Origin: an uncultured bacterium
GTDB taxonomy: Bacteria > Actinomycetota > Acidimicrobiia > Spongiisociales > UBA5794
Reading direction: 5' to 3'
Assembly: GCA_963801165.1 (NCBI GenBank)
Contig: CAWDDT010000005.1
Location: forward strand, 512,001 to 576,000
DNA: 64,000 nt
Below are positions 35,121 through 50,795 of the stretch, in pieces. The notes under the pieces are model-generated. The model was given only the letters and a program-made list of their open reading frames with translations. It was not told where the DNA came from and searched no databases. The position numbers and the translations under genes are program-made. Position 1 is the stretch's first letter; every line of letters starts with the position of its first letter.

Positions 35121-35132
35121 TGCCCCACATTC

Positions 35133-35176
35133 GCTCACAACCCGAAGGTCGAGGGTTCAAATCCCGCCCCTGCTAC
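35133..35176 (+). other. 3' half of an initiator tRNA-Met-like sequence (att remnant), followed by a hairpin at 35181-35209
   Basis: GCTCACAACCCGAAGGTCGAGGGTTCAAATCCCGCCCCTGCTAC; no 5' half; GAAGAACCC/GGGTTCTTC stem. Confidence 0.7.
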
Positions 35177-35511
35177 GAACGAAGAACCCGTGTATTGCAA
35201 GGGTTCTTCTCTTGTCGGGACTTGTCGCTTTATCCGGCTTCGGTGGTCTCTATCGCGCGTCCGGCTGCCGAGACTTGACAGCGTCGTGCGGGGAGAGTCG
35301 TCCGAGGTGGCCTTCTGGGGGCATCAGGCCCTGTCAGAGGCCGCGTCAGGGATGGCGTGAGTCCGATGATGGCAGGCTGGGCCACACGCGTCTCAGTGTT
35401 GTAGGCCCCATTGACGGCATGCCTCGAGCATCCTTATGGTGTGGTCGGACAAGGCAGCGTCTGTTTGGGCGCACGACTGCGGGACGTACCGAGTATGACA
35501 GGAGGCGGACC

Positions 35512-36153
35512 GTGGGGCTTCGAGGCATTTCACGGATGGGGCTTACCGTCGGGCTGTTCATCGCCGTGGCGGGATGCAGCTCCGCCGGTGGCGATGAGCA
35601 AGCAACCACGACGACCAGCGACCCCGCGGCTTCCAATACGACAGCGGTCGGAGTCACCGATACAACCGGCCTTGAACCCACGACTTCTGGCGGGGACGAA
35701 CCAGCCTCCGTCGGTTCTTCAGACCTGCCGGAAATGAGTGGTGGAAGCGCAGCGTTCACGCTTGCAGGTGAACCTGAGGACTTCGATTGGTTCGTCTGCT
35801 TCTACGGAGACGCTGCCGTGGAGATGTTTGGCGATGAAGACGTCACCTTTGTTGGCATAGGTCGGCGAGGAGGGTCCTTCCCGTCCATGGATGGCGTCGA
35901 GGCACAGATTGTCGCATCCCGCTCAGAGTCGGCTCTCGGCACCAACTACACGATCCTCTACACACGCGTCGGAAACGACGGCGCCCAGACCAATTGGCAG
36001 GATGTCGGTTCTGACGCTGTACAACTCCAGGGGGATCGGGTCACCTTTCAAGGGGAGCTGAGCCGCATCATTGACAACCAGCCGAGTGACGAGTTCGACA
36101 CCGGGGCGCTGGATGCCACGTGTAGCCCCAACAGCATCGGCTCGGGTGAGTAG
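35512..36153 (+). CDS. Hypothetical lipoprotein (similar layout to 26034..26645)
   Basis: VAGC lipobox, Thr linker, AAFTLAGE...C...GALDATC. Confidence 0.7.
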   Translation: MGLRGISRMGLTVGLFIAVAGCSSAGGDEQATTTTSDPAASNTTAVGVTDTTGLEPTTSGGDEPASVGSSDLPEMSGGSAAFTLAGEPEDFDWFVCFYGDAAVEMFGDEDVTFVGIGRRGGSFPSMDGVEAQIVASRSESALGTNYTILYTRVGNDGAQTNWQDVGSDAVQLQGDRVTFQGELSRIIDNQPSDEFDTGALDATCSPNSIGSGE

Positions 36154-36489
36154 CGCTCGTCGAGCAGAAGAGGTCTTCATCTCTTCCAGGCAGCAAGGAC
36201 TGTCACGGTGGTGGGTCGAGGTCGATCGCCTGCCGAGCGTTGGTGGTCTTGCCGCGCGACTTGTGGAGCTCGTATCCGATGGAGACGCGCCCGGTTGACC
36301 TTCTGACGTCTTGAACTCGGTAGGACTGATAGGGCTCCATATCGGTATCCGTCCGCTGCGCGGCTCAGACCTCGAACAGGGTCTGTCCGATGTAGCTGCC
36401 GTCTGGGAGTCCTACATCTTCCAGGGGGTTCTTCACACCTGGAGGCTAAGACGGGGCGTTTGGTGTGCATTTGGTCCGCGGGAGAAGCG

Positions 36490-36660
36490 GCTTTCTGTCA
36501 ACCGGAGTGATGCGCGTCACTGGCGAACGCGACATCAAGGGCGTCCGAGACCTTGGATCTGTCTTCGGGGTAGAGATGCCCATACCGGTCCATCGTGAGG
36601 ACGATCGAGCTGTGACCGAGGTGCTCCTGCACTACCTATGGACGGCAACCCCCGGGCGAT
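36490..36660 (-). pseudogene. Tyrosine integrase C-terminal remnant
   Basis: Manual translation *VVQEHLGHSSIVLTMDRYGHLYPEDRSKVSDALD with an in-frame stop just upstream; boundaries approximate. Confidence 0.8.
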
Positions 36661-36837
36661 ACATCCATGGTGTCACTCGCTCACGTGGAGTCCCTCGTCG
36701 CCGGCGCATCGGCGCGCGTTACAGCGGTAGGTCCCCGAGAGCGATGCGCTCATTTACGCGACGGTCCGTCGCACCGCACAACGTCGGTCACTGCGAGGAT
36801 GGCAGACCCCCCCCGTAGACACGAGGAAATTCAATTT

Positions 36838-36885
36838 GTGGGCCCAGCTGGATTTGAACCAGCGGCCTCATCCTTATCAGGGATG
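36838..36885 (-). repeat. att site (48-bp direct repeat of the tRNA-Ile 3' part)
   Basis: 47/48 identical to 50720-50767. Confidence 0.95.
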
Positions 36886-37331
36886 ATCAAAGAGATCTGG
36901 CGACATTGGCGATGCGGCGATATCTCCTGTGTCACAGCGGATAACGTACCTCATTGGTTCGCATCATTTCTGGACGTTTCTCGTTCTCCCGTGGACGCGA
37001 TGTGGACGCGGGCAAGCTTGATCGCGCGAGGTGCGCCTCGAGACCCCTGTTCTTACGCCGTTCTTGGAGGTCTTGCCTGCCGGGACAAATCGGCGGAGAG
37101 CCTGGTTTTCCGGGCGATTCTGCCTCTCATCGTCTTTTGTCATTTCTCATGTTTGCGCCCGTTGCGGTCCAGGTGCGACCCAACTCGGGCGCGGAGGTAT
37201 TCGGCGGTGGCAGACATGTTGTACACGCCAATGGCACCGTGATCCCGGTACCGGGTGCCCTGGGGTTGGTGGGCTATCGCTGCCCTCCGGCTCCAAAGGA
37301 TGATGAGCAGCACACGCGTCGGCCGACCGTC

Positions 37332-38036
37332 TCATGGGCACTCGATCGCAGAGTTGACAGTCACCACATCTGCGATCAGAGGCTCTGGGTCGTCTACGAT
37401 CGCTACCTCCCATACGTCGTAGAGACTGCAGAGACCCTTTATGGTTGCGGCGTAGACTTCTCCGTCCTCCGTGGTGGCATGCCGCACTAGCACGGTGCTT
37501 CCATCGGTCCCTGTGCGTTCACCGATATCCTGCGCTTCTGCGCCGTCGCCGAACGCGAGAGCGATCGCTAGTTGCTCGTCACCGACGAAGGTAGCGAGCA
37601 GGGTGTAGATAGCGTCCTCCCTCACATATGTCAGCGCCGAGTACGGTGCCCCGTGGGGTTCGTCCCAACCGGGGTCCACCACTCCGAGGGCTTGCAGCGC
37701 AGTCTCGAGCACGCCGTCCAGCTCTGATCGGTCACGGGGCACCGTCGTAGCCGTCGAATCCCTTTCCATAGCAGTGGTTGTCGTTGTGCTCTCGTGGCCT
37801 CCGGTTGTCGTAATCAGATGTACGCCGGTGGTGGAAGTTGCCTGCGTGGTCTTGCTCGCATCCGCCGGGTCGCTATCAGATGAAGTCGGTGAGGTCTCCC
37901 CCGAACATGCCGCCAGGGCAATGATCATCGCGAGGATGATCAAGTAGCTAGGTCGGCGGAATGCTGAGGGCCTACAACGGCCGACGGGTATTGAGCGGCT
38001 CGACCGGTCCGGCGGTGTCTGGGTGATCGTCGTCAT
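37332..38036 (-). CDS. Hypothetical lipoprotein
   Basis: LAAC lipobox, Thr-rich linker, C-terminal Cys pair. Confidence 0.7.
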   Translation of the reverse strand: MTTITQTPPDRSSRSIPVGRCRPSAFRRPSYLIILAMIIALAACSGETSPTSSDSDPADASKTTQATSTTGVHLITTTGGHESTTTTTAMERDSTATTVPRDRSELDGVLETALQALGVVDPGWDEPHGAPYSALTYVREDAIYTLLATFVGDEQLAIALAFGDGAEAQDIGERTGTDGSTVLVRHATTEDGEVYAATIKGLCSLYDVWEVAIVDDPEPLIADVVTVNSAIECP

Positions 38037-38114
38037 TGTCCTTCTACTCCAGGGCGGTTGTGCGTCGCGTAGCGGACGAGCGGTCAGCTGAGTGCCAGTC
38101 CGCCACGCTCACTG

Positions 38115-38984
38115 CTACCAGAGGTCGCGACGGAATTGAGCCAATTCGTCCTCGTGCTCGGCGAGGAATGAGTAGTCGAATTCGAATATCGCTTTCTCGA
38201 AGACGGGACGCAGGTCAGAGTCGCACGAGGCATTCGCCTCGTACATCGCTCGCTCAAGCTCGAGCAGCTCTGCGTAGGCCTTGTGACTCAAGCCGAGAGT
38301 CTCGTCAATCTCCGCGTCGATTGCCTGATCCAACTGTCCAAGCATGTCCCCCAAGGATGACACGTCGAATCCGTTTGAAGACATGCAGTCTGCCCATTCG
38401 TGAATTGCTCTTGAAACCCTCGGGTCCGACTCGAGCGTCGAGGCACGCGCGGCCATGTATTCGATCCTGAGTGGAGCTATCGCCACGGCAAGGCCGGGCG
38501 TCATCCTGTACGCCGCTCCAGTGCAGCTGGCCGCGAAGTCCTCAGCCGATTGGCTCGGATTCTGCCAATCGCGGCCATAGAGGGCTTCGTAGTATCGAGA
38601 GCGTTCACCCGAATCGAGGGATTCGGCATACACGATGTTGGGGTCATCGCGCACCACTAGCCCGGTCTCATTTAGCTTGTCCCTGCTGAAGGATGTGACG
38701 AAGCCGAAGTACTCCTCCGGCTCATCACTGCCTGGCTCGAAGACATTGAAATCTGGAGCCAGCGGCACAAACGGCATACCCACGCCGTTCATACACTTCT
38801 GGATCGAGTCCTGGCGTGCTGTCTCCTCAGCGTCGAAGATGCTTCTCTCGATGTCCGGGTTGTGCCCCAGACCCACGTATTCCGCGAGGGGAGAGGTAGG
38901 CACGGTCTGGGCTCGGGCCGCCGTGCCAGCAACGACTCCAACGAAGGCGACTGCGGCCACAGCTACCAGCTTGGCTGTCTTCAT
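38115..38984 (-). CDS. Secreted protein with paired C-M..G motifs
   Basis: Signal peptide; IQKCMNGVG, SCTGAA, WADCMSSNGF, NASC; AAAGGAG RBS. Confidence 0.75.
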   Translation of the reverse strand: MKTAKLVAVAAVAFVGVVAGTAARAQTVPTSPLAEYVGLGHNPDIERSIFDAEETARQDSIQKCMNGVGMPFVPLAPDFNVFEPGSDEPEEYFGFVTSFSRDKLNETGLVVRDDPNIVYAESLDSGERSRYYEALYGRDWQNPSQSAEDFAASCTGAAYRMTPGLAVAIAPLRIEYMAARASTLESDPRVSRAIHEWADCMSSNGFDVSSLGDMLGQLDQAIDAEIDETLGLSHKAYAELLELERAMYEANASCDSDLRPVFEKAIFEFDYSFLAEHEDELAQFRRDLW

Positions 38985-39010
38985 TACTTGTGCTCCTTTC
39001 ATCGACGGCA

Positions 39011-39748
39011 CTAATAGATCAGGTTTCGCGGATAGCCGAGATATGTGTCCACTCCGTAGCCGATCCGCCACTGCCATGTCCGATTGCGTAGCCAGCTGAC
39101 TCCCAAGCTGTATGAGTGGTAGTCGGCTTCGACGTAAGCTGCCTTCGCGACGGTTTGTGTTAGCTCACCCAGGGAGTCGTACTGTGAGCAATCAGGCGTG
39201 TAGCAAATCTTGTCGCCAGTGCCTGGGCTCGAGGTCTTGAGCGCATCACGAAGGTCCTCGGCGAAGGCTACCTGGCTGGTGTATTGGTAGATTATGTGTG
39301 TTCCACCGTACGACGCAGAGGCCCCGCAGTCCTTTGTCTTGGCGTTGGAGTGAATCGGGATGTGGATGTCAGCACCCCAGGAGTTCGAGTCACTGATCTT
39401 CGTGCTGGCGCTCACTCCCCAGCGCACTTTGACGTAATAATGCCGGTCTAGTAGATCCGTGCCGTAGCCGGAAGCTGCCTCCACGGCTATGTCTGGGGCG
39501 CCTTCCGATACGCTGTCCTCAACGTAGCCGTCGCAGCCCACGTTTGCACCGCCGTGATAGGCCGGAGACAGATAGACCTTGTACTGGTTCCAGCCATTCG
39601 TCGGCCAATAGTAAGCACTGCCCGCCGAGGCCGGCTGGGCAGCGACAAGATTGCCCACGGCAAACGACGCACCAAAAGCAACCAGCATCAGAATTGCCAA
39701 GCGGACAGCCTTTCGGCGCAGCTTTGCTTTATCTGCGGCATTCATCAT
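39011..39748 (-). CDS. Secreted N-acetylmuramoyl-L-alanine amidase (Amidase_3-like)
   Basis: Signal peptide; KVYLSPAYH, E, SNSWGADIHIPIHSNA, AAYVEADYH Zn/catalytic pattern. Confidence 0.8.
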   Translation of the reverse strand: MMNAADKAKLRRKAVRLAILMLVAFGASFAVGNLVAAQPASAGSAYYWPTNGWNQYKVYLSPAYHGGANVGCDGYVEDSVSEGAPDIAVEAASGYGTDLLDRHYYVKVRWGVSASTKISDSNSWGADIHIPIHSNAKTKDCGASASYGGTHIIYQYTSQVAFAEDLRDALKTSSPGTGDKICYTPDCSQYDSLGELTQTVAKAAYVEADYHSYSLGVSWLRNRTWQWRIGYGVDTYLGYPRNLIY

Positions 39749-40142
39749 GACCTCACTCGAATCTCGTTTGTCTCGAACACCGTTCGTCTCCCCTTTCCTT
39801 GAAGGTCTCGCAGATCAGGAACTCTCTTGCCTGCACCTCTCTGTCGTAATACTTGGTCATGACCGCCCGATGGGTTCAGGTCGAAGTGCCCGAATCCAAC
39901 GGCTGCGAGGCCACACGGAGGAGCTCGTTCAGGTCTACGCCCAAACGAGGGCGGGCCCAGCGCTACGGAGGATGGCCGTAGCGGCGCCGGACCCACCCCC
40001 ACATAGATGTTGATCTCAGCCTGTCTGGTGGTTCACCGACCGGAGTAGGCCTGGAGCCAGCCGAGTGATTGCAGCGATGACCGTGAACCGAATTGCGCCT
40101 GGAGTCAAAGTGCAGTGAGTCAGTCCAGATATTGATCGGAGG

Positions 40143-40679
40143 ATGGCCGTGACTGATTTCATTGTGCAGGCGCTCGCCGCGGCGGTAATCGCTGGGTCGC
40201 TTGGGCCTGCTACCCCAGCTGTCGTAGAGCAGCACTGCGTTGTCGAGGTTGTTGGTCAGGCAGAGGATGGGGAGTTGATCATGTCTGATCCGGTGTGCTT
40301 CGCCGGGTTCGCCGAGGCGATGAGCTACGCCTCTAGCGGTGAACTGGCGTTGCCGGACCAGATCGAGGGCTCTGCTGTGCTTGTGGACGCTGCGGTGGCT
40401 GCGGCGGTGTCGTCGTTCTCGATCGGCATCCACTACTCGGATTACAACGGTGGTGGAAGCTCCATGACCATCTCAGGGTCGGCGTGCACGGGTGGCTATT
40501 GGAATGCCACTGGCTGGTGGGCGAATCGGATCAAGTCGTCATACAACGGCTGTCCGAGGCTGCGCCACTACGACAGCCCGAACCTCGGCGGAGCTTCACA
40601 GACGACGTACACCGCGGGTCAGATCGACAATCTCTCGGCGTTGGCCGGGAAGGTCGAGTCTGTCCAGTATCTGCCGTGA
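40143..40679 (+). CDS. Secreted protein with beta/gamma-crystallin / peptidase-inhibitor-I36-like C-terminal domain
   Basis: HCVV..CF N-terminus; YSDYNGGG...WANRIKSS...C....YDSPNLGG. Confidence 0.65.
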   Translation: MAVTDFIVQALAAAVIAGSLGPATPAVVEQHCVVEVVGQAEDGELIMSDPVCFAGFAEAMSYASSGELALPDQIEGSAVLVDAAVAAAVSSFSIGIHYSDYNGGGSSMTISGSACTGGYWNATGWWANRIKSSYNGCPRLRHYDSPNLGGASQTTYTAGQIDNLSALAGKVESVQYLP

Positions 40680-40682
40680 GTC

Positions 40683-41324
40683 TTGGTGGTGAACTCCTGT
40701 CGAGCGCCGTCCCACGGCGCTCGACATCGGGGTCGGCTGTATTCTCAGGCTGACTTGATTCCAGATTCTGATGTGATCGCTGCCTCGTTGGATGTTCCGG
40801 ATCGTTTCGGTGAGATCTTTGACCGGTACGGTCGACGTGTCTTCGGATATGTCGCTAAACGGATCCCCCGCGAGGATGTGGCCGATGTCACTGGTGATGT
40901 GTTCTTGCGCGCCTTTCGGATCCGACACCGGTACGACCTTGGTCGACCCGATGCTCTGCCGTGGCTGCTTGGTATTGCTACCAACGTGATCGGCGAGTAT
41001 CTCAAGAAGCGCAAGCGGAGAGCCAGAATTGGCCTACGTCCCGATGCTGCGACCGACCTGCCCGTCGAGGAGCTTGCGACCGAGCGGGCAGACGCGGCTC
41101 AGTCCAAGCCCCTCTTGGACCAGGCACTCGCTTCGCTCCATCCTCGTGACAGGTCTGTATTGATTCTCTACGCCGTCGAGGATCTGTCGTATCGGGAGAT
41201 CAGCGACGCTCTTGCCGTCCCGGTCGGGACCGTCAAATCGCGCCTGAACCGGGCACGAGCCGCCGCAAGTGAACGCATTAGTAGTTCGCGCCAAAGACCT
41301 TACGATGGACGCAGAAATGAATAG
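40683..41324 (+). CDS. ECF RNA polymerase sigma factor
   Basis: FGEIFDRY, DVTGDVFLRAF, LPWLLGIATN, LSYREISDALAVPVGTVKSRLNRAR; real start may be downstream. Confidence 0.92.
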   Translation: MVVNSCRAPSHGARHRGRLYSQADLIPDSDVIAASLDVPDRFGEIFDRYGRRVFGYVAKRIPREDVADVTGDVFLRAFRIRHRYDLGRPDALPWLLGIATNVIGEYLKKRKRRARIGLRPDAATDLPVEELATERADAAQSKPLLDQALASLHPRDRSVLILYAVEDLSYREISDALAVPVGTVKSRLNRARAAASERISSSRQRPYDGRRNE

Positions 41325-42300
41325 CAGACGCGATGCAGAGCTTGATGCTGCGGTACGCTCGCTTGTGGGCGATATCGTCCCCACCGATGCCGAACTCGCA
41401 TCGGTGCGCTCGCGACTTGAGGCCGCAATATACGAGGAACGCTACCGGCGCAAGGCTGGAGTTAGTTGGCGATACGCGTGGGCAGCGGGGGTTGTTGCGG
41501 TAGCTCTCGTTGTGACCGGTGCTGTCCTGTGGGCACGACCAGCGCCCCTGCAAGCCGCGCTCGCCGAATACGCCGAGATACTCCTCCAACAGGAACCGCT
41601 GCAACCACAAGCAGGCCAGTTCATCTACCAGGAATCCCACACCACCCAGCTGGCAGTGGTCGACGGATCAGAGCTACCCGACCTTGACGTAGAACAGATC
41701 GCATATCTGATCGTTGGAGAACGGCAGGTCTGGGTTGGTGCCGACAACACCATCGAGCTCGCCATAACCCCAACCGGAGTGGAGTTCTTCTCTGACGAGG
41801 CAGCCGCCGCCTACCAACATGCCGGGCTGGCAGAACTCGACGGTATCGGTGTTACCACCACCGTCACCCAACAATCGCAACTCTTCCCTGACCTGCCCCA
41901 AACACCAGAAGAACTCGAGCAATACCTCCGCGAACAGGCCCGTCTCGGAGGAGGCGTGCTGTCCGAGGACGAACACCTCTTCAACCTCCTAGCGGCGGTC
42001 CTCGCCGATCCCACCATCCCAAACAGCTCGAAAGCTGCCGCCGCAGATGTGATCGGCACCATCAAGGGCGTGAAACTCGTGGAACGGACCGACAGCCATA
42101 TCACTCTGGCGTTGGAGTACACCGACCTCGGTCAGGTGCAACGAACCCTCACTCTCGATCTCACCGCTCCCCAACTCGCATCCGACACGACCGAGCTTCT
42201 CGGTGCCCTCGACGAACTCGACATACCGACTGGGACCATCATCGACGAGACACACTACGAGCCGTCGATCACCACAACATCCGGTTTCCCACCGAGGTAG
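41317..42300 (+). CDS. CU044_5270-like membrane anti-sigma factor
   Basis: Overlaps the sigma stop; VRSRLEAAI, TM helix, PQAGQFIY, RQVWV, LPQTPEELEQYL, IGTIKGV. Confidence 0.75.
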   Translation: MNSRRDAELDAAVRSLVGDIVPTDAELASVRSRLEAAIYEERYRRKAGVSWRYAWAAGVVAVALVVTGAVLWARPAPLQAALAEYAEILLQQEPLQPQAGQFIYQESHTTQLAVVDGSELPDLDVEQIAYLIVGERQVWVGADNTIELAITPTGVEFFSDEAAAAYQHAGLAELDGIGVTTTVTQQSQLFPDLPQTPEELEQYLREQARLGGGVLSEDEHLFNLLAAVLADPTIPNSSKAAAADVIGTIKGVKLVERTDSHITLALEYTDLGQVQRTLTLDLTAPQLASDTTELLGALDELDIPTGTIIDETHYEPSITTTSGFPPR

Positions 42301-42771
42301 TAGAGAGGAACTTTCTGCCCAAAGGTGCAATGCCGCTTGCTCGGCAATTGTCGGCCGGGCGGCTGCGGCGATCAGAATGTGTTGGCAACGCGTTGGTACA
42401 GTCTTTCGTTGTTCACCCAGCGTCTCCATCCGTTGCCGGTGGGGTCCGGAAGTGGCATGACCTCGACTCGGGGGTTCTCCGACAATCTGATGATCGCGGG
42501 GTACCTGCTGCATGTCCTCGACGACCGCCGAGCGACCTGGTCTAGATTCGATAAGCAGCAATCCGGAATCACGGGTCGTGGACAGCAGAGCACACGTTCG
42601 AGGGCTTGCGCAGCCACGTGCCGCAGAGCCTCCACACTCTCAGGACGATTCCGGGGCCGCGCCGCCTTTCGTTGCCGCTGCGAGCGCGGCGGTTGTGGAA
42701 CAGCTGATATGTTCCGCTCGGTGGCAATACCCATACCCGGGGGCGGCGGCTTCGTGAGAATGGCTACCGTC

Positions 42772-43926
42772 CTAGCCGTGGCTTGCGCTCGCGCGATTCA
42801 GCTCCCACACTGTCACTCCATCGTGGTCAATGACGCCAATGTAGGGATCGCCGGACACCGGGTCGAGTCCCAGACTGTTCGGTGTACCCGGGTTCCGGCC
42901 CCCAAATGGATCCGGTATCGGAAGTGCGCGCACAAGGTTCCCAGACCGATCGATTTCTACGTAGGCGCCTATTCCAACTTCCTCGTTGATCTCGGAGAAT
43001 CCAGCCAGCAGCAGATGCAGCGAACCCTGGCGATCGGCGATCACCTCTACAACCGCAAAGACATCTCCACCATCGATCGACGTCATCTCGAGATCGACCA
43101 ACATGGCTGGCTGTGCGTCCGGGAGTGACATACGAACAACTGCGGGATTGCTGGGGTCGGCGGCAAGGCGATAGCGGGAGCCTGCCGGGGTCCGCAGATA
43201 GTCAACCGCCTCGGCAACGAGCGCCCCGTCTTCTATCGCAACCGCAAAGAATCGGGACCCGAGCGTTTCACGTCCAAATACGACATCGCCGTCGTTGTTG
43301 ATGAGGCTCAACAGCCTGTCGCTTTCCTGGTAGGTGATGCGATTGCCAATGATTGTCGCCAAACGCATGTTCGTGGATGAGGCAATAGCGGTCCCGTCGC
43401 TGAGTATCTGCAAACCGGAGAGGGGAGCTTCGTGGGCAATGTCTACCGAATCGAAGAAAGATCCGTCGCGTCCGTACCGGGCGATTCGATCCTTGTAGTT
43501 ATCGAGTATCCACCACCGGCCGAGGAGGTCAAGCGCCACCGGCAGTTCGGGACCCCACGGCTCGTTGACGGAATCCCCGTTCCCGAGCAAGGACTCGTCG
43601 CTCCCATAGCCAAGCGACAGCGCCACTTGCCAATCCTCCGCGAGCGAGAACGGCGTGAGGGAAACGTCATAGTGACGAGTAATCGGATCGAGGCCTACCG
43701 TTGCGGGCGCGACAGTAGTTGTCGAGGTGGTAGTTGGTTCGTCGATTCCGACGTTCTGTGTGGGAACCGTTGATGACCCGGTGTCCTGTATGGCTCCCGT
43801 CGAGCGGGAGGTTCCGGGAGGCACCGGTGGCTCGCTGGTCTCGCTGCACCCAGCGAGACCAGCGAGGACCACGACGAATACCAACCCGAGCTTGAGCGTC
43901 AACTGCAAGTGCCGTCCCAAAGACAT
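42772..43926 (-). CDS. Lipoprotein with beta-propeller-like domain
   Basis: LAGC lipobox; GYGS...LG......GP...ALD..G.WWILD..K.RI. Confidence 0.7.
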   Translation of the reverse strand: MSLGRHLQLTLKLGLVFVVVLAGLAGCSETSEPPVPPGTSRSTGAIQDTGSSTVPTQNVGIDEPTTTSTTTVAPATVGLDPITRHYDVSLTPFSLAEDWQVALSLGYGSDESLLGNGDSVNEPWGPELPVALDLLGRWWILDNYKDRIARYGRDGSFFDSVDIAHEAPLSGLQILSDGTAIASSTNMRLATIIGNRITYQESDRLLSLINNDGDVVFGRETLGSRFFAVAIEDGALVAEAVDYLRTPAGSRYRLAADPSNPAVVRMSLPDAQPAMLVDLEMTSIDGGDVFAVVEVIADRQGSLHLLLAGFSEINEEVGIGAYVEIDRSGNLVRALPIPDPFGGRNPGTPNSLGLDPVSGDPYIGVIDHDGVTVWELNRASASHG

Positions 43927-44570
43927 CCTCCCCAGCGACGTACGCCGGTGAAGGACGAATCACCTCGGTAGGTCCTGACCCATAACCCGGTGCCATCCGC
44001 CTCGCCCTTGGCTTCGATGATGTTGTCGGTGTTCCAGGTCGATGTTGTGGAGTAGATCATCCCAATATGCGAACTCGAAGCCAGCGCATCCATGTAGATG
44101 GTTGACGCCTTGCTGATCTGAGACAGATTTGGGCCGTCTCCTGCTTTGAATTCCGAGGCTGTAAAGGCCCCGTGGATGTTTCTGAGTTGCGGCCAGTATC
44201 TGTATCCGGTCGACGTTTCATTGTCAACCAGAGCCCAAGATTTGAATGTGAATCCCGAGCAATCGCCGCCCTCGCCATGCGTACTCGCAGTCTTAACGGG
44301 ATCGCCGGGTTGGTCATCGATGTTGTTGTTGTTCCAACAGCCGCCGTACCAGTGATACCCCTCATAGCGAGCCACATAGGAGTAGCTGCGAGCAGACGAG
44401 CGATTCCAGGACGAAAGGCTGTAGTCCGTATCCGTGTTGCAGTTGTCCCAGAAGCCATGGGCCGCTGCCTCGGGCGCGTCGATCGCGCTAACGGCAATAA
44501 GCCCCACGAGGAGACCAACGAAGAATCGGACGATGTGGAGGCGCCCGATGTAGCGAATGTGGTGTGTCAT
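43899..44570 (-). CDS. Secreted NlpC/P60-like cysteine hydrolase (putative peptidoglycan endopeptidase)
   Basis: Signal peptide; GYHWYGG, GGDCSGFTFKSW (Cys), SHIGMIY (His), IIEAKG. Confidence 0.75.
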   Translation of the reverse strand: MTHHIRYIGRLHIVRFFVGLLVGLIAVSAIDAPEAAAHGFWDNCNTDTDYSLSSWNRSSARSYSYVARYEGYHWYGGCWNNNNIDDQPGDPVKTASTHGEGGDCSGFTFKSWALVDNETSTGYRYWPQLRNIHGAFTASEFKAGDGPNLSQISKASTIYMDALASSSHIGMIYSTTSTWNTDNIIEAKGEADGTGLWVRTYRGDSSFTGVRRWGGCLWDGTCS

Positions 44571-46036
44571 GACAAGCCTCCAATCTCGAAACGTGCAATC
44601 CAGAATCCAAGTTCATCGTTGCGCAGCTGGTAGAGGCCATTGGGACCAACCTCGAATCGTCCCAGCACCGAGCTGTCCGCCCACCGTGAAGCGTCGACTG
44701 CGAAATGCTCCGTTGACCCATCAGCGTTCAGCACAATGACCTCGAAGACGGCGTCGTTGTCGGTCCAAGTCCGGATGACGACCAGCAAGCGCCCGTTGAC
44801 AATCTCGGCTAGCTGAACTTCGCCGATTTCCCGGTCACTTGTGATACTCCACACAGATCGAATTGAACCCCCACTGATGAGAGCGAAGAGCGCGTGGTCG
44901 CTGTCGGCTGACACGACAAGCTGAGGTTCGGCCAGATCAATCGAGCCGGTCGCCAGCGCACCGTCAGACTCTGACGTGACTCCCGCCTCAGCGCTGGTTA
45001 CCTCAACGAGTCCGCCGATTTGAGCAGCGTCCCTGGTTCTCAAAGGTACTCCAACCGGTGCATTCTCGAGCTGGTCTGGTCGAGCAACCGGTGTGGCATC
45101 GTAAAACGTCGTTGCCCACACACTCCTCGTAGCATCGTGGAGTACCACGCTAGAGTCGATCGCTTCGAGCTTCTCCGGAAGAACATCAGCGAGGAAGCTG
45201 GTCGAGAGGAGCGCGCCTCCCGGGTCGTATGCGGTGATCTTCGGATGGATGCCCGCGCCACCATCGAGAACGAAACGCGTCCCGTCGTCACCTATCGCCA
45301 GATCGGCCAATCCTCCTGTGTGCTCAATAGTCTGAACCTCCGGAGTGCTCGCGCCGCTTGACCACGTGAGCAAGCGGCCGTTAACGCGGTCCAAGACGAC
45401 CAAGGCACCATCGGGATCGAATGCGAACGCGGCTGGACCCTGAACATCTGATTCGTGGCCACCGGTGACACCAAACTCGTTAATCCCATCACCCCATCCT
45501 CCTGAGACGATGATCTCTTCTGGCGGAGTAGCTGATGGGGATGCGGGTAGATGGGTATGGACAGCCGTGCTGTAGCTCCACGCTTCGTGAAACAGGTCAC
45601 GCCGATCCGGTACGCGCACTGTCTCTCCAGTTGCAGTGTTTGAGATTTCCGCGTAGTACTGGAAGCCGTTGTCGGTCACCTGTGGCGGGATGGTTGCTTC
45701 GAGGATAGGGGGGTACTCCCCGGGCTCAAGACTGATTCTCTGGAACGAGTCTGACCCTTGGCTCCTTACGAACACGAAGCCTTCGACGTCACACAGCATG
45801 TCACCGCGTTCGAATGCCTCTTCATCCCAAGCGCAGACAGTGTCATACACAAGCGAGACCGGCTCACCTCGTTCGACCAATACCGGCTGCTTGTGAAACG
45901 CCTGGAATCCTTCCGTTGATGTCGCCAGTCCACGGCTCTGGCCGATGACAATCAAACCTCCTACAGTGACCCCGAGGGCTAGGCCCACTGTCGCGGGCCA
46001 CCGCACGAGTCTCGAGAAAAGCTGTCCCTTGCGCAC
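44567..46036 (-). CDS. Exported protein with Ig-like N-terminal domain and beta-propeller-like domain
   Basis: N-terminal TM/signal; GFQYYAEI; GWGDG..EFG......GP..FAFD.DG.LVVLD.VN.RL; GTG start with GGAGGA RBS; ATGA overlap with the NlpC/P60 gene. Confidence 0.7.
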   Translation of the reverse strand: MRKGQLFSRLVRWPATVGLALGVTVGGLIVIGQSRGLATSTEGFQAFHKQPVLVERGEPVSLVYDTVCAWDEEAFERGDMLCDVEGFVFVRSQGSDSFQRISLEPGEYPPILEATIPPQVTDNGFQYYAEISNTATGETVRVPDRRDLFHEAWSYSTAVHTHLPASPSATPPEEIIVSGGWGDGINEFGVTGGHESDVQGPAAFAFDPDGALVVLDRVNGRLLTWSSGASTPEVQTIEHTGGLADLAIGDDGTRFVLDGGAGIHPKITAYDPGGALLSTSFLADVLPEKLEAIDSSVVLHDATRSVWATTFYDATPVARPDQLENAPVGVPLRTRDAAQIGGLVEVTSAEAGVTSESDGALATGSIDLAEPQLVVSADSDHALFALISGGSIRSVWSITSDREIGEVQLAEIVNGRLLVVIRTWTDNDAVFEVIVLNADGSTEHFAVDASRWADSSVLGRFEVGPNGLYQLRNDELGFWIARFEIGGLS

Positions 46037-46175
46037 AATTCCTCCATTCCTCGACAACGTTGATGTCTTTGCCGTGAATCGTCGACTGGTTCACGGATCT
46101 CATCTCCAAGCGAAGCCTCTCGGCGCGGCCAGAGGAGATCGGGACGAGCGGGCAGGTGACGCTCTGCGGTCGTGA

Positions 46176-48836
46176 TCAAGGATGAATGTCGAGGCCACAC
46201 TCATGTCCATGTTCATGGTCAATGGCCGCCGGTCGCATCCGGCTGCGGGCGAACATTGCGGAAACGTCATCAGCTCCGGGTTGCCGTGTTCGGTGGGTGA
46301 GGTGGGTGCATTCTTCCCGGCCGGGTTCGCGGGTGGCAAGGTAGAGGGTGTTGGCGTTGCGCCCCCGGCTGAGGGCGACGTAGGCCCATTCCCGGTCGGT
46401 GGTTCCGGTGATGACGGTGAAGGTACGTCCGGTCGTGATGCCTTGGGCTTTGTGGGCGGTGAGGGCGTATCCGTACCCGACATTCCCGTCGGTGAGACAC
46501 CAACCCGGAAGCTCTCGGGTTTCGGGGTCTCGGTCGAGACGAACCGTAACGGTTCCGGCTTTCTGGTCGACGGCGGTGATGGTGCCGAGGTCGCCGTTGA
46601 GGACATCGAGGTGGTGTTGGTTTCGGCGGCAGAGGATCCGGTCACCGGCCTGGAGAACCACGCCCGACGCTTCGTGTGTGGGTCCGTGGAGGCGTCCGGA
46701 GGTGGCGAGGTGCTGGCGTGCCTTTTCGTTGAGTTCGGTGACGGTGTCGTTGTCGTGGGCTAGGAGCATTGCCGAAGCGATGTCACCCGCTCTCTGGACG
46801 TGCCGGTACCAGTCGCTGCTCGCTTGTGCAATCGTGTCGGTGCGGGTGCGTCCGAGGATGAGGCGCCGATGCTCGGCATAGGCTTGCATTGCTTGTTGTA
46901 CTGATCCGTTGCGGAGCTCGTCGAGTGCTTGGCGTTCCCAGGCCGCCTGTTGACGAACGTTGTCGGTGAGTTCGACGGCTGGTAGCCGGTTGGCGAGGGC
47001 ACGGAATAGGCCGCCAGCGTCGATCTCGGGGAGTTGCTTGTAGTCCCCGATCAGGATCAGTTTCCCTTGTGCTTGTTCGACCAGGTCGACGACGGCGGCG
47101 AGTTGCCGGGTGCCGACCATGCCGGCCTCGTCCACAACCACAACAACACCGGTAGGAAGGCCGGACCCGTGGAGGAGCCGGGCGAGGGTGGTGGAGGGGA
47201 CGCCGGTGTCGGTTTGTAGGCCGGCTGCGGTGCGGGCGGCAAGCGCGGCACCGATGATGGGTCGTCTGGTGAGTTGGGCGAGTTGGTTGATGACGGCGAC
47301 GACTGCTGTTTTGCCGCTGCCGGCGGGGCCGATACCGATGTCGATGCTGTTGCCGGAGGTTGCGAAGCTGCGCACCATCTGGCGTTGCCCTTCGGTGAGT
47401 TCCGGTCTGTGCCGTAGCCAGGTTTCCACGAGACGCCGGGGTGCCTGCCAGCGGCCCTGACCTACACCGGCCATTGCGTATTCGATGATCCGCTGTTCGG
47501 TGGCGAGGAGTTCTGCGGTGGTGTAGCTGGGCAGCGCTGGCGCGGGGAACGGCGCACCGTCACGGGTTCGCATCGCAATCACCGCTCCCTCGACGAGTTC
47601 TCGATCCTCCGGCTCGGCGGGCGAATCCGCCTCGTCCCCGGTAGCGGGTTCGAGTTGAGGGCCGGGTAGCAGTGGGATGATGTCACGGCCGGTGAGGAAT
47701 GAGTTGGCGAGGGTCTCGATCTCAGCCCGGGTGCCACCCTCGGGGAGTGCCGCGGCGATGTGTTGGATGACTTCTGGTGTGGCGAATGTCGACCTGTGGG
47801 CGGTGAGCCCGTCTGGTGACGCCAGATCCGCAAACAACGCTCCCACATCTGGTGTGGTGACCCGTCTGCTGCGATCGACGATCCGACTGATCCTCTCCGG
47901 AGTGAGACCCACCTTTGCGGCTCGTCGCTGCCAGACCGCTTCCAGCTCGTCGAGGGGACGGTTGGTCTTGGTCGTGCGGGTGGCGATCACCGCCACCTGC
48001 CGCGCCGCCGCCGTATCCGGAAGACCCTCTTCCTGTCGCCAGGCTTCGAGCTGTCGACGCCGCTGGGAGAACGCTTCGATCTGGGTACGGGTGAACCCGG
48101 CAATATCGGCGACACCGTGATGTACCGGCTGCCACCGCACCCCGAGCCGGTCCGTGAGCTCCCGGCGCAACACTGCCTCATGCAGGTAGCCGGCGGCGAG
48201 CTGATGCCGATACAACAGTCGACCGTCGATAGTCCGCCACACCCCATCGACGCCGTTGACCGTGTTGGCAACGACGACATGGGTGTGTAGCTGCGGGTCG
48301 TCGGCCCGTGACGTGTATTCGGTGAACGCCGCCGCCACATACCCCGACGTCGCGATCGGCCAGGTCTCTACCCGATACCTCGGTCGCCCATCCGGGCCAC
48401 GAACCCGATTTCCGTTCTCGTCGACGACCGGTGTCTTGGTGGCGCCACGAGTGTCGGATGCCACCGACTCCAGATAGCTGAAAGCCTGTGACGTTGCCTC
48501 GCCGAACGCCTCCAGGACCTCTTTGCGGGTGAGTTCGTCACCCAGCGCCCACAACAGCGACACCGACTTGTCCGCCGAGAAGGTCACATCCCACGCCGCC
48601 ACCCCGTCCGTGCGGAGACGACGCCCCAACTGCTCACCGGTGCCGGGATGGTTCCCGTCGAACAGCCGCACCAGACCCTCCGCCGACACACTGCCCGCAA
48701 GGCCCAACTCGGCGGCTCCCGACCCGCACCAACGACCGGTGGCGGTGCCGCCGCGCAGGTAGTAGTCCTCCCGCGGTGAGATCTCACCCAGCTTCTGCAG
48801 GTAATAGTCCTTGACCGCCTTCGCCAGACTCAACAC
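46176..48836 (-). CDS. MOBF (TrwC-family) relaxase-helicase
   Basis: DYY..DYY, DVTFSADKSVS, TSRADDPQLHTH, FSQRR, GPAGSGKT, DEAGM, GD.KQL, YALTAHKAQG, YVALSR. Confidence 0.95.
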   Translation of the reverse strand: MLSLAKAVKDYYLQKLGEISPREDYYLRGGTATGRWCGSGAAELGLAGSVSAEGLVRLFDGNHPGTGEQLGRRLRTDGVAAWDVTFSADKSVSLLWALGDELTRKEVLEAFGEATSQAFSYLESVASDTRGATKTPVVDENGNRVRGPDGRPRYRVETWPIATSGYVAAAFTEYTSRADDPQLHTHVVVANTVNGVDGVWRTIDGRLLYRHQLAAGYLHEAVLRRELTDRLGVRWQPVHHGVADIAGFTRTQIEAFSQRRRQLEAWRQEEGLPDTAAARQVAVIATRTTKTNRPLDELEAVWQRRAAKVGLTPERISRIVDRSRRVTTPDVGALFADLASPDGLTAHRSTFATPEVIQHIAAALPEGGTRAEIETLANSFLTGRDIIPLLPGPQLEPATGDEADSPAEPEDRELVEGAVIAMRTRDGAPFPAPALPSYTTAELLATEQRIIEYAMAGVGQGRWQAPRRLVETWLRHRPELTEGQRQMVRSFATSGNSIDIGIGPAGSGKTAVVAVINQLAQLTRRPIIGAALAARTAAGLQTDTGVPSTTLARLLHGSGLPTGVVVVVDEAGMVGTRQLAAVVDLVEQAQGKLILIGDYKQLPEIDAGGLFRALANRLPAVELTDNVRQQAAWERQALDELRNGSVQQAMQAYAEHRRLILGRTRTDTIAQASSDWYRHVQRAGDIASAMLLAHDNDTVTELNEKARQHLATSGRLHGPTHEASGVVLQAGDRILCRRNQHHLDVLNGDLGTITAVDQKAGTVTVRLDRDPETRELPGWCLTDGNVGYGYALTAHKAQGITTGRTFTVITGTTDREWAYVALSRGRNANTLYLATREPGREECTHLTHRTRQPGADDVSAMFARSRMRPAAIDHEHGHECGLDIHP

Positions 48837-48985
48837 GAGACACCGCCTGAAGCAACTGGTTGCAGATGCGTGTGTCGATCAGGCCGTCGGTACAGTCGAA
48901 GCGGTACGAGTGCCGTGGCGACGATTGCGGTCGTGCCTGCTCGAGGCTGGTCGCAGACGGATCTTCCGCAAAGGTTCGGGTCTGG

Positions 48986-49192
48986 CCAGAGTCTCATAGC
49001 TCCGACTAGACACCCTGACCCTCTCACCAGAGTCTCAAAAACCCTCCACAAATCCTGTCCAAAACCCTGTCAACCGATCCCGGCCGGCCCGCCACCAAGA
49101 AAAACCTCACCCGCCGAAATCGCCCGCCAAATCGGCGTTTCCGACCCAATGACAGGTCCAAGTGCAGCGAAATGGGACTCTGGTGAGAGGGT
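48986..49192. promoter_or_regulatory. Candidate oriT / regulatory region with repeated 11-17-bp sites
   Basis: CCAGAGTCTCA at 48986 and 49027; ACCCTCTCACCAGAGTC (49018-49034) exactly inverted at 49176-49192. Confidence 0.55.
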
Positions 49193-49211
49193 TGGACTTC
49201 ATGCTCAGAGG

Positions 49212-49412
49212 ATGGAACGTCTCGATCGGCTCCTCACTGTCCAAGAACTCGCCAACTACCTCGGAGTGCCCGTATCGACCATCTACGCGTGGCGATACCG
49301 ACACGAAGGTCCACCCGGCTTTCGCGTCGGTCGACACGTGCGCTTCCGGCGGAGCGACGTCGAACGGTGGCTCAACGATCAGCTCGACAAGGTTCGAGGA
49401 CAAAGAACTTGA
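49212..49412 (+). CDS. Excisionase-like / AlpA-like helix-turn-helix protein
   Basis: LLTVQELANYLGVPVSTIYAWRY...GPP.FRVGRHVRFRRSDVERWL. Confidence 0.9.
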   Translation: MERLDRLLTVQELANYLGVPVSTIYAWRYRHEGPPGFRVGRHVRFRRSDVERWLNDQLDKVRGQRT

Positions 49413-49546
49413 AGAAGTGCCGGGGGCAATAGGCGAAGTCGGTGGTAGTTCTGACAGTCGCCTGCAACTTGCATGGCGATCTTGAGGGTGGCGCCACCTC
49501 GGACATGGGGGTACGGTCGGCGGAGGAGCTCCAGGAGGTAGACGAC

Positions 49547-50716
49547 GTGGGTTCGGTACGAAAGGTGAAGCATCGATCCGGCAAGGAGAGCTGGCAAGCA
49601 CGGTGGCGGGACCCGTCGGGCACGGACCGTTCCAAGAACTTCGACCGGAAAGTAGACGCCAGCCAATACCTCGTTGGCTTGGAGTCCGACAAGCTCCGCG
49701 GGCGTTACACCGACCCTCGTCTTGGCCGGACCAAGCTCGCCGGATGGATCCGGGAATGGCAGGCCACACGGACGAACCTGAGTCCTCAGACGCGTCTCCG
49801 TGACGAAGCCTCGATTCGCAATCACGTGCTCCCCGCATTCGGTACCGTTCCGATCGGGCAGCTCCGGCCGGCGCATGTCGCACGGTGGGTTGCGGACCTC
49901 GACGCCAACGGCTCAGCGCCGGCCACCACCCGCAAGGCCTACCAGCTTCTAGCTGCCGCACTGTCCGACGCAGTGGACAATGGGCTCATCCCGCTATCGC
50001 CATGTAGGAACGTGAAGCTCCCCAAGCTCACCTCCCCGGAGATGAGGATTCTCGAGCCGGCAGAGATCAAGGCTCTGGCCGGTGCCGTCGACGAGCGCTA
50101 CCGAGCGATGATCCTGGCCGCGGCGTACACGGGGCTACGTTTTGGTGAACTTGCCGCTCTTCGGATAGAGCGATTCGACGCCCTGCGGAGGACGATCCGA
50201 GTGGAGGAAAGCCTCGCTGAGATCCGAGGGCAGTTCATGGTGAAACCGCCGAAGTCGGACGCCTCTCGCCGGATGGTCTCAGTGCCGTCGTTCGTAGTCG
50301 AGGAGCTGGCGCAACACCTAGCTGAACATGCCGACGGTTCCGGCCTCGTTTTCAATGCACCGTCTGGTGGTCCGATCCGACGTACGAACTTTCGACGACG
50401 GGTATGGCTTCCGGCGGTCCGAGCGTCGGTCGGAGAGCCGTGCACCTTTCACGATCTCCGACATACACACGCTGCACTTCTCATCGCCGTGGGTGAACAC
50501 CCGAAAGTCATCCAGGGACGGCTCGGTCACGCGTCGATCAAGACCACTCTCGATACCTACGGGCACCTCTTCGAGGGGCTCGATGAGGCCGCCGCGGATC
50601 GTCTCGACAAGGTGTGGCGCACCGCTGCTGTGGACGCGGTGTGGACGCAGCGAGATCGGGAGATAATCGAGTTCACAGGCAGAAAACCAAAACCCCTTGC
50701 GGGGCAAGGGGTTTGA
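49547..50716 (+). CDS. Tyrosine recombinase / integrase
   Basis: WQARWRDP, TGLRFGEL, PKS, FHDLRHTHA, RLGHAS, TYGHL; AGGAGG RBS; stop abuts the att core. Confidence 0.96.
   Translation: MGSVRKVKHRSGKESWQARWRDPSGTDRSKNFDRKVDASQYLVGLESDKLRGRYTDPRLGRTKLAGWIREWQATRTNLSPQTRLRDEASIRNHVLPAFGTVPIGQLRPAHVARWVADLDANGSAPATTRKAYQLLAAALSDAVDNGLIPLSPCRNVKLPKLTSPEMRILEPAEIKALAGAVDERYRAMILAAAYTGLRFGELAALRIERFDALRRTIRVEESLAEIRGQFMVKPPKSDASRRMVSVPSFVVEELAQHLAEHADGSGLVFNAPSGGPIRRTNFRRRVWLPAVRASVGEPCTFHDLRHTHAALLIAVGEHPKVIQGRLGHASIKTTLDTYGHLFEGLDEAAADRLDKVWRTAAVDAVWTQRDREIIEFTGRKPKPLAGQGV
50690..50714. terminator. Hairpin terminator between integrase and tRNA-Ile 3' end
   Basis: AAACCCCTTGC-ggg-GCAAGGGGTTT. Confidence 0.7.
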
Positions 50717-50717
50717 C

Positions 50718-50795
50718 TGGTGGGCCCAGCTGGATTTGAACCAGCGACCTCATCCTTATCAGGGATGCGCTCTAACCGAGCTGAGCTATGGGCCC
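50718..50795 (-). tRNA. tRNA-Ile (GAT)
   Basis: GGGCCCATAGCTCAG...CATCC-CTGATAA-GGATG...GGTTCAAATCC...GGGCCCACCA. Confidence 0.97.

Follow-up and report, generated by a model that had tools for sequence, protein, structure and literature searches.

Organization of the element and its cargo

The 64-kb window analyzed here is a stretch of a soil actinobacterium genome (13 contigs, 4.55 Mb, 98% complete). It contains a 13.9-kb element (36838-50767; coordinates are positions in the window unless another sequence is named) that is integrated in a tRNA-Ile gene, with 48-nt direct repeats on both sides. About 9 kb of the element is cargo, made up of nine genes in three units (Table 1). Unit A consists of g3, g2, and g1, which encode a divergent Amidase_3-type enzyme, a secreted four-Cys protein, and a lipoprotein. 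Unit B consists of g4, g5, and g6, which encode an I36-like secreted protein, a sigma factor of the extracytoplasmic function (ECF) type, and a putative membrane anti-sigma factor similar to CU044_5270 proteins. Unit C consists of g9, g8, and g7, which encode a membrane-anchored protein with an immunoglobulin-like (Ig) domain and an NHL propeller, an NlpC/P60-fold enzyme, and an NHL-propeller lipoprotein.

Table 1. Coordinates of the genes, candidate promoters, and mobility features of the element
Feature	Coordinates	Strand	Description
attL	36838..36885		Displaced 3' part of tRNA-Ile; 47/48 nt the same as 50720-50767
g1	37332..38036	-	Lipoprotein, 234 aa, Thr/Ser-rich linker, lipobox at residue 41; no Pfam/NCBIfam family above cut-off; last in unit A
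g2	38115..39077	-	Secreted four-Cys protein, signal-like segment; likely start near 39002 or 38984; conserved amidase partner
g3	39011..39748	-	Divergent Amidase_3-type zinc amidase, secreted (predicted)
Motif, unit A	39852..39878	-	TGAACC-N16-CCAAG; ~100 nt before g3
Motif, sigma operon	40084..40110	+	TGAACC-N16-CAAAG; 32 nt before g4 ATG
g4	40143..40679	+	Small secreted four-Cys protein, I36/beta-gamma-crystallin-like; leads sigma cassette; Pfam Inhibitor_I36 E 0.0095, below cut-off
g5	40683..41324	+	ECF (group 4) sigma factor; Sigma70_r2 and r4_2 only; TIGR02937 82.1 bits (cut-off 42.9)
g6	41269..42300	+	Single-pass membrane anti-sigma-like protein, CU044_5270-like extracytoplasmic domain; NF038083 E 9e-18, 65 bits (cut-off 100)
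g7	42772..43926	-	DUF7485 lipoprotein (E 3e-32), NHL-type propeller; last in unit C
g8	43899..44570	-	Secreted NlpC/P60-CHAP-fold cysteine hydrolase (predicted), unnamed family
g9	44567..46057	-	Membrane-anchored Ig-like sandwich and NHL-type beta-propeller; putative g8 partner
Motif, unit C	46067..46093	-	TGAACC-N16-CAAAG; 30 nt before in-frame GTG 46036
Relaxase-helicase (MobF/TrwC)	46176..48836	-	TrwC E 3e-74; AAA_30; NF041492 MobF 228.7 bits, above cut-off
Excisionase-type protein	48870..49412	+	Helix-turn-helix HTH_17; TIGR01764 51.5 bits, above cut-off
Tyrosine integrase	49442..50716	+	Phage_integrase E 2e-20
tRNA-Ile(GAT)	50718..50795	-	3' part 50720-50767 = attR

An initial annotation, made from the sequence alone, had placed nine cargo open reading frames (ORFs) in three units on a mobile element, and both points are borne out, the second by the attachment (att) repeats together with the integrase, excisionase, and relaxase genes. 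These three genes form the right end of the element (46176-50716). No transfer-apparatus family, either type IV secretion system (T4SS) or coupling protein (T4CP) or FtsK-type, was found among the Pfam matches of the element ORFs scanned. Integrative mobilizable elements (IMEs) are relaxase-bearing islands without a conjugation apparatus. With a site-specific recombinase and att repeats, its own relaxase, and no mating-pore family in the scanned ORFs, the element is an IME by its anatomy. One soil-metagenome contig covers 36401-36885 and then continues with 10 bases that match 50768-50777, which is the junction expected of an empty site; this single contig of low depth is a weak hint of presence/absence polymorphism. 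Other metagenome contigs aligned to the att sites gave loose ends only and no joints.

The GC content of the window is 0.62-0.69 and dips to 0.57-0.61 over 35-46 kb. This stretch takes in the cargo, whose lowered GC agrees with a foreign origin. The dip begins approximately 1.8 kb to the left of attL, where two ORFs (35212-36153 and 36177-36470) belong to no family. The low-GC stretch at 35000-36837 may have been left behind by an earlier insertion at this tRNA site.

The claim that all cargo except the sigma factor is exported or membrane-bound also held, as a single hydrophobic N-terminal segment is predicted in all eight non-sigma cargo proteins (residues 73-89 in the anti-sigma-like protein) and none in the sigma factor, relaxase, excisionase, or integrase. 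A lipobox is present in g1 and g7 only. The two propeller labels of the initial annotation were right in kind, since g7 and g9 are both NHL-type, but "propeller lipoprotein" had been given to the wrong one of them: the lipobox is on g7 (and g1), and g9 is membrane-anchored. A PHROGs search gave no match for eight cargo proteins. Single-sequence searches of the PDB with g8, g3, g2, and g6 returned nothing useful, apart from a weak hexosaminidase match of g6 (E 0.013).

A promoter-like motif shared by the three units

The initial annotation had also noted one promoter-like motif common to the three units, and such a motif was found before each of them (Table 1). All three copies lie on the coding strand upstream of the first gene of the unit and have a 16-nt spacer. 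The longer pattern GTGAACC-N16-CAAAG is exact at 40083-40110(+) and 46067-46094(-), and a copy with two mismatches is located at 39852-39879(-). Genome-wide, TGAACC-N15-17-C[AC]AAG occurs at 11 sites (4.55 Mb, both strands), and three of these are the three candidate unit promoters. A GAAC-containing -35 element (GAACC) is typical of ECF promoters.

The pattern was built from two of its three sites, so that the third site and an orthologous cluster in another genome (L006, described below) serve as independent tests. In L006, the sequence GAGAACC-N16-CAAAC stands at two places, before the g4-like gene (5893-5917) and again before the g9-like gene (8395-8419). Among 80 loci with a g8 homologue, the core GAACC-N16-CAAA is found upstream of g9 in two, which are exactly the two that carry the sigma cassette; none was found upstream of g9 in the other 78, which have no sigma match. 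The TGAACC motif was not found in two sister elements of the same genome (L001 and L002) or in a paralogous cassette (L003), where a looser GGAACC-N17-CAAT was spotted by eye. The positions and orientation of the motif suggest that the sigma factor may drive all three units. A scan for sigma-70-type promoters returned one site, within g7, versus 3.1 expected, with none intergenic, and no convincing terminators were seen.

A fourth copy with one mismatch, GTGAACG-N16-CAAAG, is present at 41269-41296(+), where the 3' end of the sigma gene overlaps the beginning of the anti-sigma ORF. This copy may act as an internal promoter, or it may be there by chance.

An NlpC/P60-fold enzyme encoded with a propeller protein

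Family searches gave no Pfam match for g8 or g9, and no NCBIfam match for g8. The g8 protein has at least 894 relatives; among the 120 listed, none has a Pfam domain, all named ones are "hypothetical", and many come from metagenome-assembled genomes (MAGs) of Gaiellaceae. Residues C104 (in DCSGF), H168, and E186 are invariant in 30 sequences. When the g8 model was compared with 48,161 chains in a VIA fold search, NlpC/P60 and CHAP wall hydrolases accounted for nearly all of the top 35 rows (Z 9.3-5), with the best match at Z 9.3, a root mean square deviation of 3.3, and 123 aligned residues. The best PDB match of the g8 profile is LytE (E 0.023), around the catalytic Cys motif. Because g8 fails the PF00877 model, it is placed at the fold/superfamily level only. 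PF00877 has no match in the whole host genome, and 9 of 14 control genomes have one. As far as detected, g8 is the sole NlpC/P60-fold enzyme of the host genome, PF00877 being the one other search made for this fold.

The model of g9 is of good quality (predicted local distance difference test (pLDDT) 83.4, predicted template modeling score 0.82) and consists of a transmembrane helix, an Ig-like sandwich (~50-170), and a beta-propeller (~180-490). Its best fold match is the filamin-NHL structure of Lin41 (E 8e-11), followed by the NHL domains of Mei-P26, Brat, and TRIM2/3. The likely true start of g9 is GTG 46036, after GGAGGA, and in the window its stop overlaps the start of g8. The g7 profile also matches NHL domains (Mei-P26, E 5.6e-6). 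Kinship between g7 and g9 is possible but unproven (BLASTP E 0.19; hhalign probability 43.7%, E 2.4e-4 over 81 columns). At locus L140 (G235 C6:6684-9884), a DUF7485 search matched the N-terminal part of a g9-type frame adjoining a g8 homologue, and the DUF7485 and g9 families therefore appear to be linked through their first propeller blades.

The initial annotation had suggested co-folding of the NlpC/P60 protein with the protein encoded at 44567. Residues 45-496 of g9 and 36-223 of g8 were co-folded, with a 30-row alignment for each and three controls, and the ipSAE was 0.95 in three runs versus 0.00 for the best control. The ipSAE mark is reached by 116 of 157 solved complexes and by 2 of 215 mismatched pairs, a calibration that holds roughly with our own alignments. 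The runs share at least 87% of contacts, with a partner pLDDT of 76-82. On g8, the predicted interface includes residues 103-106 (catalytic Cys motif), 167-168 (catalytic His), and a hairpin at 173-183, which contacts g9 residues in several blades (295, 307-312, 381-386, 410-414, and 465). Binding of g9 to g8 is thus model-supported, and the predicted contacts fit a partner that covers the catalytic face of the enzyme.

To place the pair in context, loci were collected with the g8 profile, using one genome per species, and the best 80 of 207 confirmed loci were kept. In all 80, the gene immediately upstream of g8 is a g9 homologue. A g7 homologue follows the P60 gene in three (L006, L007, and L008), and matches to g4, the sigma factor, and the anti-sigma factor are present in two (L006 and L007), the other 78 being without a sigma match. 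In L006, g4-sigma-antisigma-g9-g8-g7 form a collinear six-gene series on a single strand, and their neighbors include a large serine recombinase gene, a TacA/GNAT toxin-antitoxin pair, and an RHS-repeat gene. The L006/L007 stretch, with the six-gene cluster, the serine recombinase, and the RHS-repeat gene, occurs twice on one MAG contig, which reflects a very recent duplication or else an error of assembly.

The g9-g8 pair is common in soil Gaiellales-like Actinomycetota. Neighbors recur on the chromosome in Gaiellales-like loci, namely a PafBC-like WYL regulator cluster (26 of the 80), an aldehyde dehydrogenase (25), and 2-oxoglutarate dehydrogenase E1 (22). These counts come from crude ORF picking, which yields spurious antisense clusters in GC-rich loci, and only clusters with a Pfam-matching representative were used. 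Of 401 genomes sampled across the phylum, 14 have a match to the g8 profile. The search took in one further genome of the host's family and five of its order, and none of these gave a match. As g8 has no match in these relatives and PF00877 is absent from the host genome, the P60 pair looks imported into the host lineage.

A divergent Amidase_3-type protein and its putative secreted partner

The g3 family is small: a set of 5.8 billion proteins yielded 33 relatives, and 3 of the 401 genomes sampled from the phylum contain a member. Because g3 itself fails the Amidase_3 cut-off, it is placed at the fold/superfamily level only. A homologue at L107 exceeds that cut-off with 30.8 bits, and a precomputed PF01520 match exists for 5 of the 33 relatives. 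The family profile matches the amidases 4rn7 (E 0.009) and CwlV 1jwq (E 0.07). Residues H65, E77, H133, and E207 are invariant in 32 sequences; we take them to be the metal (His-Glu-His zinc) and catalytic Glu set of CwlV-type amidases. These catalytic residues support the prediction that g3 is an amidase. Canonical Amidase_3 genes are present elsewhere in the host genome.

The g2 protein has no family and no PDB relative, and its Atlas clusters are labeled only "hypothetical". The g3 profile retrieved 48 metagenomic loci, and in 18 of them the gene directly 3' of the g3 homologue is a g2 homologue. All 18 rank among the top 23 loci; of the remaining five in that group, three end near the match. 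The GC content of the amidase loci ranges from 0.45 to 0.71. In the 10 loci whose neighbor ORFs were scanned, no sigma factor stands beside the amidase pair, and the neighbors vary, with two-component systems in L100 and L096. No relatives of g1 were found beside amidase pairs elsewhere.

The proposal that both hydrolases have exported partners is therefore well matched by conserved neighbors, g9 in 80/80 loci and g2 in 18/48. The expectation that homologues would co-occur elsewhere held for these two pairs (g9-g8 and g2-g3) and failed for the whole layout, since 78 of the 80 P60 loci have no sigma match.

A recurrent regulatory cassette

By its domain content and family score, g5 is an ECF (group 4) sigma factor. 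The initial annotation had the element carrying such a factor with a CU044_5270-like anti-sigma partner, and the pair was recovered, at 82 bits for TIGR02937 and at 65 bits, below the cut-off, for NF038083. The start of g6 is uncertain; as called, it overlaps the end of the sigma gene. Genes like g4 are found in 4 of 401 sampled phylum genomes, all of the host's class, and 16 of 30 matches in an Atlas search with g4 fall in I36-labeled clusters, which is a lead only. Four of five other g4-like loci (L144, L145, L147, and L148) have genes for g4, a sigma factor, and a CU044_5270-like protein in this same order. The I36-like protein, which had been listed as separate cargo, is instead the first gene of a recurrent cassette. 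Because the gene order is kept elsewhere, g4 appears to belong to the regulatory cassette, which is reused with different outputs.

A second copy of the cassette in the host genome (L003, C5:610000-622000, at 5083-10298) is followed by a gene for an alpha/beta-hydrolase (S33/S9-like) and faces a serpin gene; no mobility gene was present among the ORFs scanned there. The hydrolase and serpin of this locus, together with the I36-like character of g4, hint at a protease/inhibitor theme.

Sister elements in the host genome

Two sister elements in the host genome have relaxases that are 82-84% identical to that of the element, adjoin tRNA-Arg and tRNA-Lys, and carry other cargo. As the relaxase backbone is shared and the cargo differs, the cargo is accessory. 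The tRNA-Arg sister measures approximately 6.3 kb between its repeats. The tRNA-Lys sister (L001, C9:428000-446000, at 6960-12128) has two ECF sigma genes, the second of them in a sigma/anti-sigma pair of its own, along with a g2-like secreted protein and other ORFs whose products look exported. Its CU044_5270-family protein scores 130.6 bits, above the cut-off. ECF cassettes seem to be frequent among the cargo that elements of this family carry. Three transposase genes are located at the far end of L001.

Proposed mechanism

The reading that we favor, at about even chances, is that the element is a mobilizable, self-contained ECF-sigma regulon that installs foreign, partner-gated hydrolases acting on the host's own wall. 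The membrane anti-sigma factor g6 would hold the sigma factor g5 until an extracytoplasmic cue, possibly sensed together with the secreted g4, frees it. The freed sigma factor would transcribe its own operon and the two wall-hydrolase operons from TGAACC-N16-C(A/C)AAG promoters. Each hydrolase would be made with an exported partner, g3 with g2 (and g1), and g8 with g9 (and g7). By binding g8 across its catalytic face, g9 may tether the enzyme at the membrane surface and keep it latent or directed. The net result would be an inducible, partner-gated remodeling or cleavage of the host's own peptidoglycan that has been acquired horizontally. In evolutionary terms, an autoregulated g4-sigma-antisigma cassette may have brought two independent modules, each a secreted hydrolase with its partner, under its control by way of sigma-type promoters. 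Since the pairs elsewhere are mostly chromosomal and sigma-free, the layout is best seen as a local assembly and not a conserved system. Control of the units by the sigma factor, the activity of the enzymes, peptidoglycan as the substrate, the role of the partners, and the nature of the inducing signal are parts of this proposal that we infer.

Several observations weigh against this proposal. Neither hydrolase assignment is secure at the family level: the names given in the initial annotation stand for fold and catalytic residues (g3 and g8) and fall short at the family cut-offs, as g3 scores 22.8 bits against PF01520 (E 1e-4; cut-off 27) and PF00877 does not match g8. The AlphaFold model of g8 alone is poor (pLDDT 63.1), a Foldseek search with it gave no match at E <= 0.001, and NlpC/P60-fold enzymes act on non-peptidoglycan substrates too. 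The predicted g9:g8 interface shows no enrichment of conserved columns (g9, odds ratio 1.16, p 0.40; g8, 0.92, p 0.66), and burial of the active site by the partner, as modeled, could equally be expected of an immunity protein or of a regulator. On the regulatory side, the CU044_5270 score of g6 is below its curated cut-off. The dependence of the units on the sigma factor rests on a motif built from two of three sites, the third having two mismatches to the longer pattern; the window holds 8 sites at <=2 mismatches versus 3.43 expected, a count that 5 of 100 shuffles reach and that is not significant by itself. L006 and L007 are 99.995% identical over 18.7 kb, so that the orthologous support amounts to one observation. 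Finally, the hint of an empty site comes from 10 bases of that one low-depth contig.

Alternative explanations

The chief alternative is an interbacterial weapon, in which g3 and g8 would be Sec-secreted antibacterial wall toxins, g2 and g9 (and g7) immunity proteins, and the sigma factor a sensor of competitors, with the element spreading both. A hydrolase next to an exported partner is the layout of an effector with its immunity protein, and the g8/g9 pair is foreign to the host lineage. The fold matches of g8 include Tse1 (Z 5.9) and Tae3 (Z 5.2), and the L006 cluster has an RHS-repeat gene, a toxin-antitoxin pair, and a serine recombinase gene in its vicinity. Moreover, the catalytic Cys and His of g8 fall in the predicted interface, and Tsi1 occludes Tse1 likewise (PMC3391265). 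We nevertheless consider a weapon unlikely, and own-wall, partner-gated action, with a roughly balanced chance of being correct, is favored over it because the g9-g8 pair occurs in recurring chromosomal contexts, without a delivery system, and with a large anchored partner encoded upstream with an overlap. Neither a secretion system nor an effector-targeting domain was found among the element ORFs scanned. The company that the pair keeps is recurrent and chromosomal (the named neighbors in 22-26 of 80 loci) and not that of variable islands, and g9 is twice the size of the enzyme. A membrane-tethered immunity protein would also not obviously protect a monoderm wall against the cell's own free secreted enzyme. 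A housekeeping, partner-gated autolysin fits the conserved Gaiellales-like chromosomal context better than a weapon does. A further alternative, somewhat less likely than a weapon, concerns the substrate. The enzymes may act on another extracellular substrate, such as a secreted peptide or protein, poly-gamma-glutamate, or a lipid-linked or teichoic-type polymer, with propellers that bind the substrate rather than regulate. Consistent with this, neither enzyme reaches a family cut-off or has a recognizable wall-binding domain, the fold list includes glutathionylspermidine amidase, transglutaminase, and double-glycine peptidases at Z 4-5, and the peptidase-like hydrolase by a serpin in the paralogous cassette, along with the protease-inhibitor-like g4, hints at proteolysis. 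The preponderance of wall hydrolases among the top 35 fold matches of g8 argues for peptidoglycan, as do the best profile matches (LytE for g8, CwlV-type amidases for g3) and the full Amidase_3 metal and catalytic set that is invariant in g3.

Hydrolases on a mobilizable element could also serve its transfer by opening the wall locally for its DNA, with the sigma factor coupling them to inducing conditions. Gram-positive conjugative elements encode NlpC/P60-type hydrolases that are needed for transfer (Tn916 Orf14, ICEBs1 CwlT), which provides a precedent. Here, the cargo adjoins the relaxase, and the candidate promoter of unit C is approximately 80 nt from the end of the relaxase gene. In the host genome, the T4SS marker PF12696 (TraG-D_C) has no match and PF12846 (AAA_10) has a sub-cut-off match only, FtsK-type translocases being outside this search. 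Such a role is improbable in view of the sister elements, which have closely similar relaxases and carry no such hydrolases, one of them within approximately 6.3 kb. Both hydrolase pairs are also found mostly in chromosomal, non-mobile settings, and the same type of cassette drives, at L003, an alpha/beta-hydrolase beside a serpin. A bolder version, in which the hydrolase/propeller complexes are a substitute mating apparatus that answers an envelope or contact signal, opens the donor or recipient wall, and lets relaxase-led DNA pass without a conventional T4SS, strikes us as far-fetched. We judge it equally far-fetched that the nine genes are a loose collection gathered piecemeal, with the motif a product of chance or a repeat left by recombination and not a promoter. 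The three modules do occur separately elsewhere, and the motif count of the window at two mismatches is within the range of shuffles. Chance would nonetheless have to put 3 of the 11 genome-wide sites upstream of the three units, each correctly oriented and each with the same 16-nt spacer, with an ECF-typical GAACC as the -35-like part, and a related motif at two equivalent places in L006.

Comparison with known systems

In common with IMEs, the element has a tyrosine integrase and excisionase, insertion at a tRNA 3' end with direct repeats, one relaxase, no transfer-apparatus genes, and variable cargo. It differs in that its cargo is a complete sigma/anti-sigma regulon with putative target operons. 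In the open-access literature searched, no mention of "ECF sigma" was found in papers on IMEs, no ECF-sigma/NlpC-P60/amidase module on a mobile element was described, DUF7485, PF24303, and NF038083 appeared in no paper, and CU044_5270 appeared in one unrelated paper; the initial annotation, which knew of no described system with this layout, is in line with this search.

The element can be compared with the lytABC operon of B. subtilis, in which the gene for an Amidase_3 autolysin is accompanied by genes for a modifier protein and a lipoprotein. Unit A likewise combines an amidase with a putative modifier and a lipoprotein, in a different gene order. For the regulatory part, the nearest parallel is sigma-I/RsgI of B. 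subtilis, in which a sigma factor held by a membrane anti-sigma factor raises the NlpC/P60 enzyme LytE under envelope stress and drives its own gene (PMC7478892). The element would share with it an alternative sigma factor, a membrane anti-sigma factor, an NlpC/P60-type wall hydrolase, and a self-driven sigma gene. In contrast, sigma-I is chromosomal and not an ECF factor with r2 and r4 only, whereas here the switch and its targets travel on a mobile element. LytE, unlike g8, has LysM domains and no co-encoded propeller.

For the enzyme/partner pair, Tsi1 of P. aeruginosa is a partial beta-propeller that occludes the active site of the NlpC/P60-type Tse1 (PMC3391265). Both systems have a single-domain NlpC/P60-type hydrolase and an adjacent all-beta, propeller-like partner over the active site (predicted here), and the Tse1 structure 3vpi matches g8 at Z 5.9. 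Tsi1 is a small periplasmic partial propeller and Tse1 reaches its target through a type VI system, whereas g9 is a 450-residue membrane-anchored Ig and NHL protein, encoded upstream, with no secretion system; most g9-g8 relatives are also in recurring chromosomal contexts. LytE-IseA and FtsEX-RipC (PDB 8i2e and 8idc) are comparable in that the activity of Gram-positive NlpC/P60 endopeptidases is set by a dedicated membrane or wall partner. The folds of IseA and FtsEX are unrelated to that of g9. Unlike g9-g8, the genes of LytE-IseA and FtsEX-RipC are not known to be fixed adjacent pairs. The g9:g8 pair is not a member of Tse1/Tsi1 or LytE-IseA, as partner size, topology, and gene order differ and there is no secretion system. 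IME cargo, an ECF regulon, and a hydrolase with a partner are kinds of system that are already known; to these the analysis adds a sizeable, unnamed family of NlpC/P60-fold/NHL-propeller pairs.

If the favored reading is true, the element would offer a clear example of an entire signal-to-output circuit, with sensor, sigma factor, promoters, and secreted enzymes, that a mobile element moves as a unit. The circuit would have entered a lineage without a P60-type enzyme in the relatives searched and without a detectable canonical NlpC/P60 domain. The analysis also brings out an unnamed family, with at least 894 relatives, of NlpC/P60-fold enzymes encoded behind a membrane-anchored Ig and NHL propeller protein (80/80 loci), and the g9-g8 pair may be a new way to gate an autolysin.

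Other islands of the host genome and flanking genes

Relaxase-integrase islands were located in the host genome at C4:469231-471897, C9:440239-442908, C6:649869-653941, C5:593970, C6:333673, C13:63583, and C13:169419. Three of the host relaxases are close to that of the element (82-84% and ~65% identity) and four are distant (32-33%), and most have an integrase and an excisionase nearby.

Outside the element, an rve-type transposase gene (53890-54654(-)) is located 3 kb to its right, and a gene for a 974-aa AAA_16/LuxR-type regulator (32038-34962(-)) is located to its left. Further left, 26732-28636(+) encodes a 634-aa protein with weak, sub-cut-off matches to the SLH, Kelch, and PD40 repeat families. 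Just before it, 26019-26645(+) encodes a small Thr/Ser-rich protein that resembles the linker of g1 and has a New_glue-type low-complexity match. The 634-aa product appears to be another propeller-type surface protein near the element.

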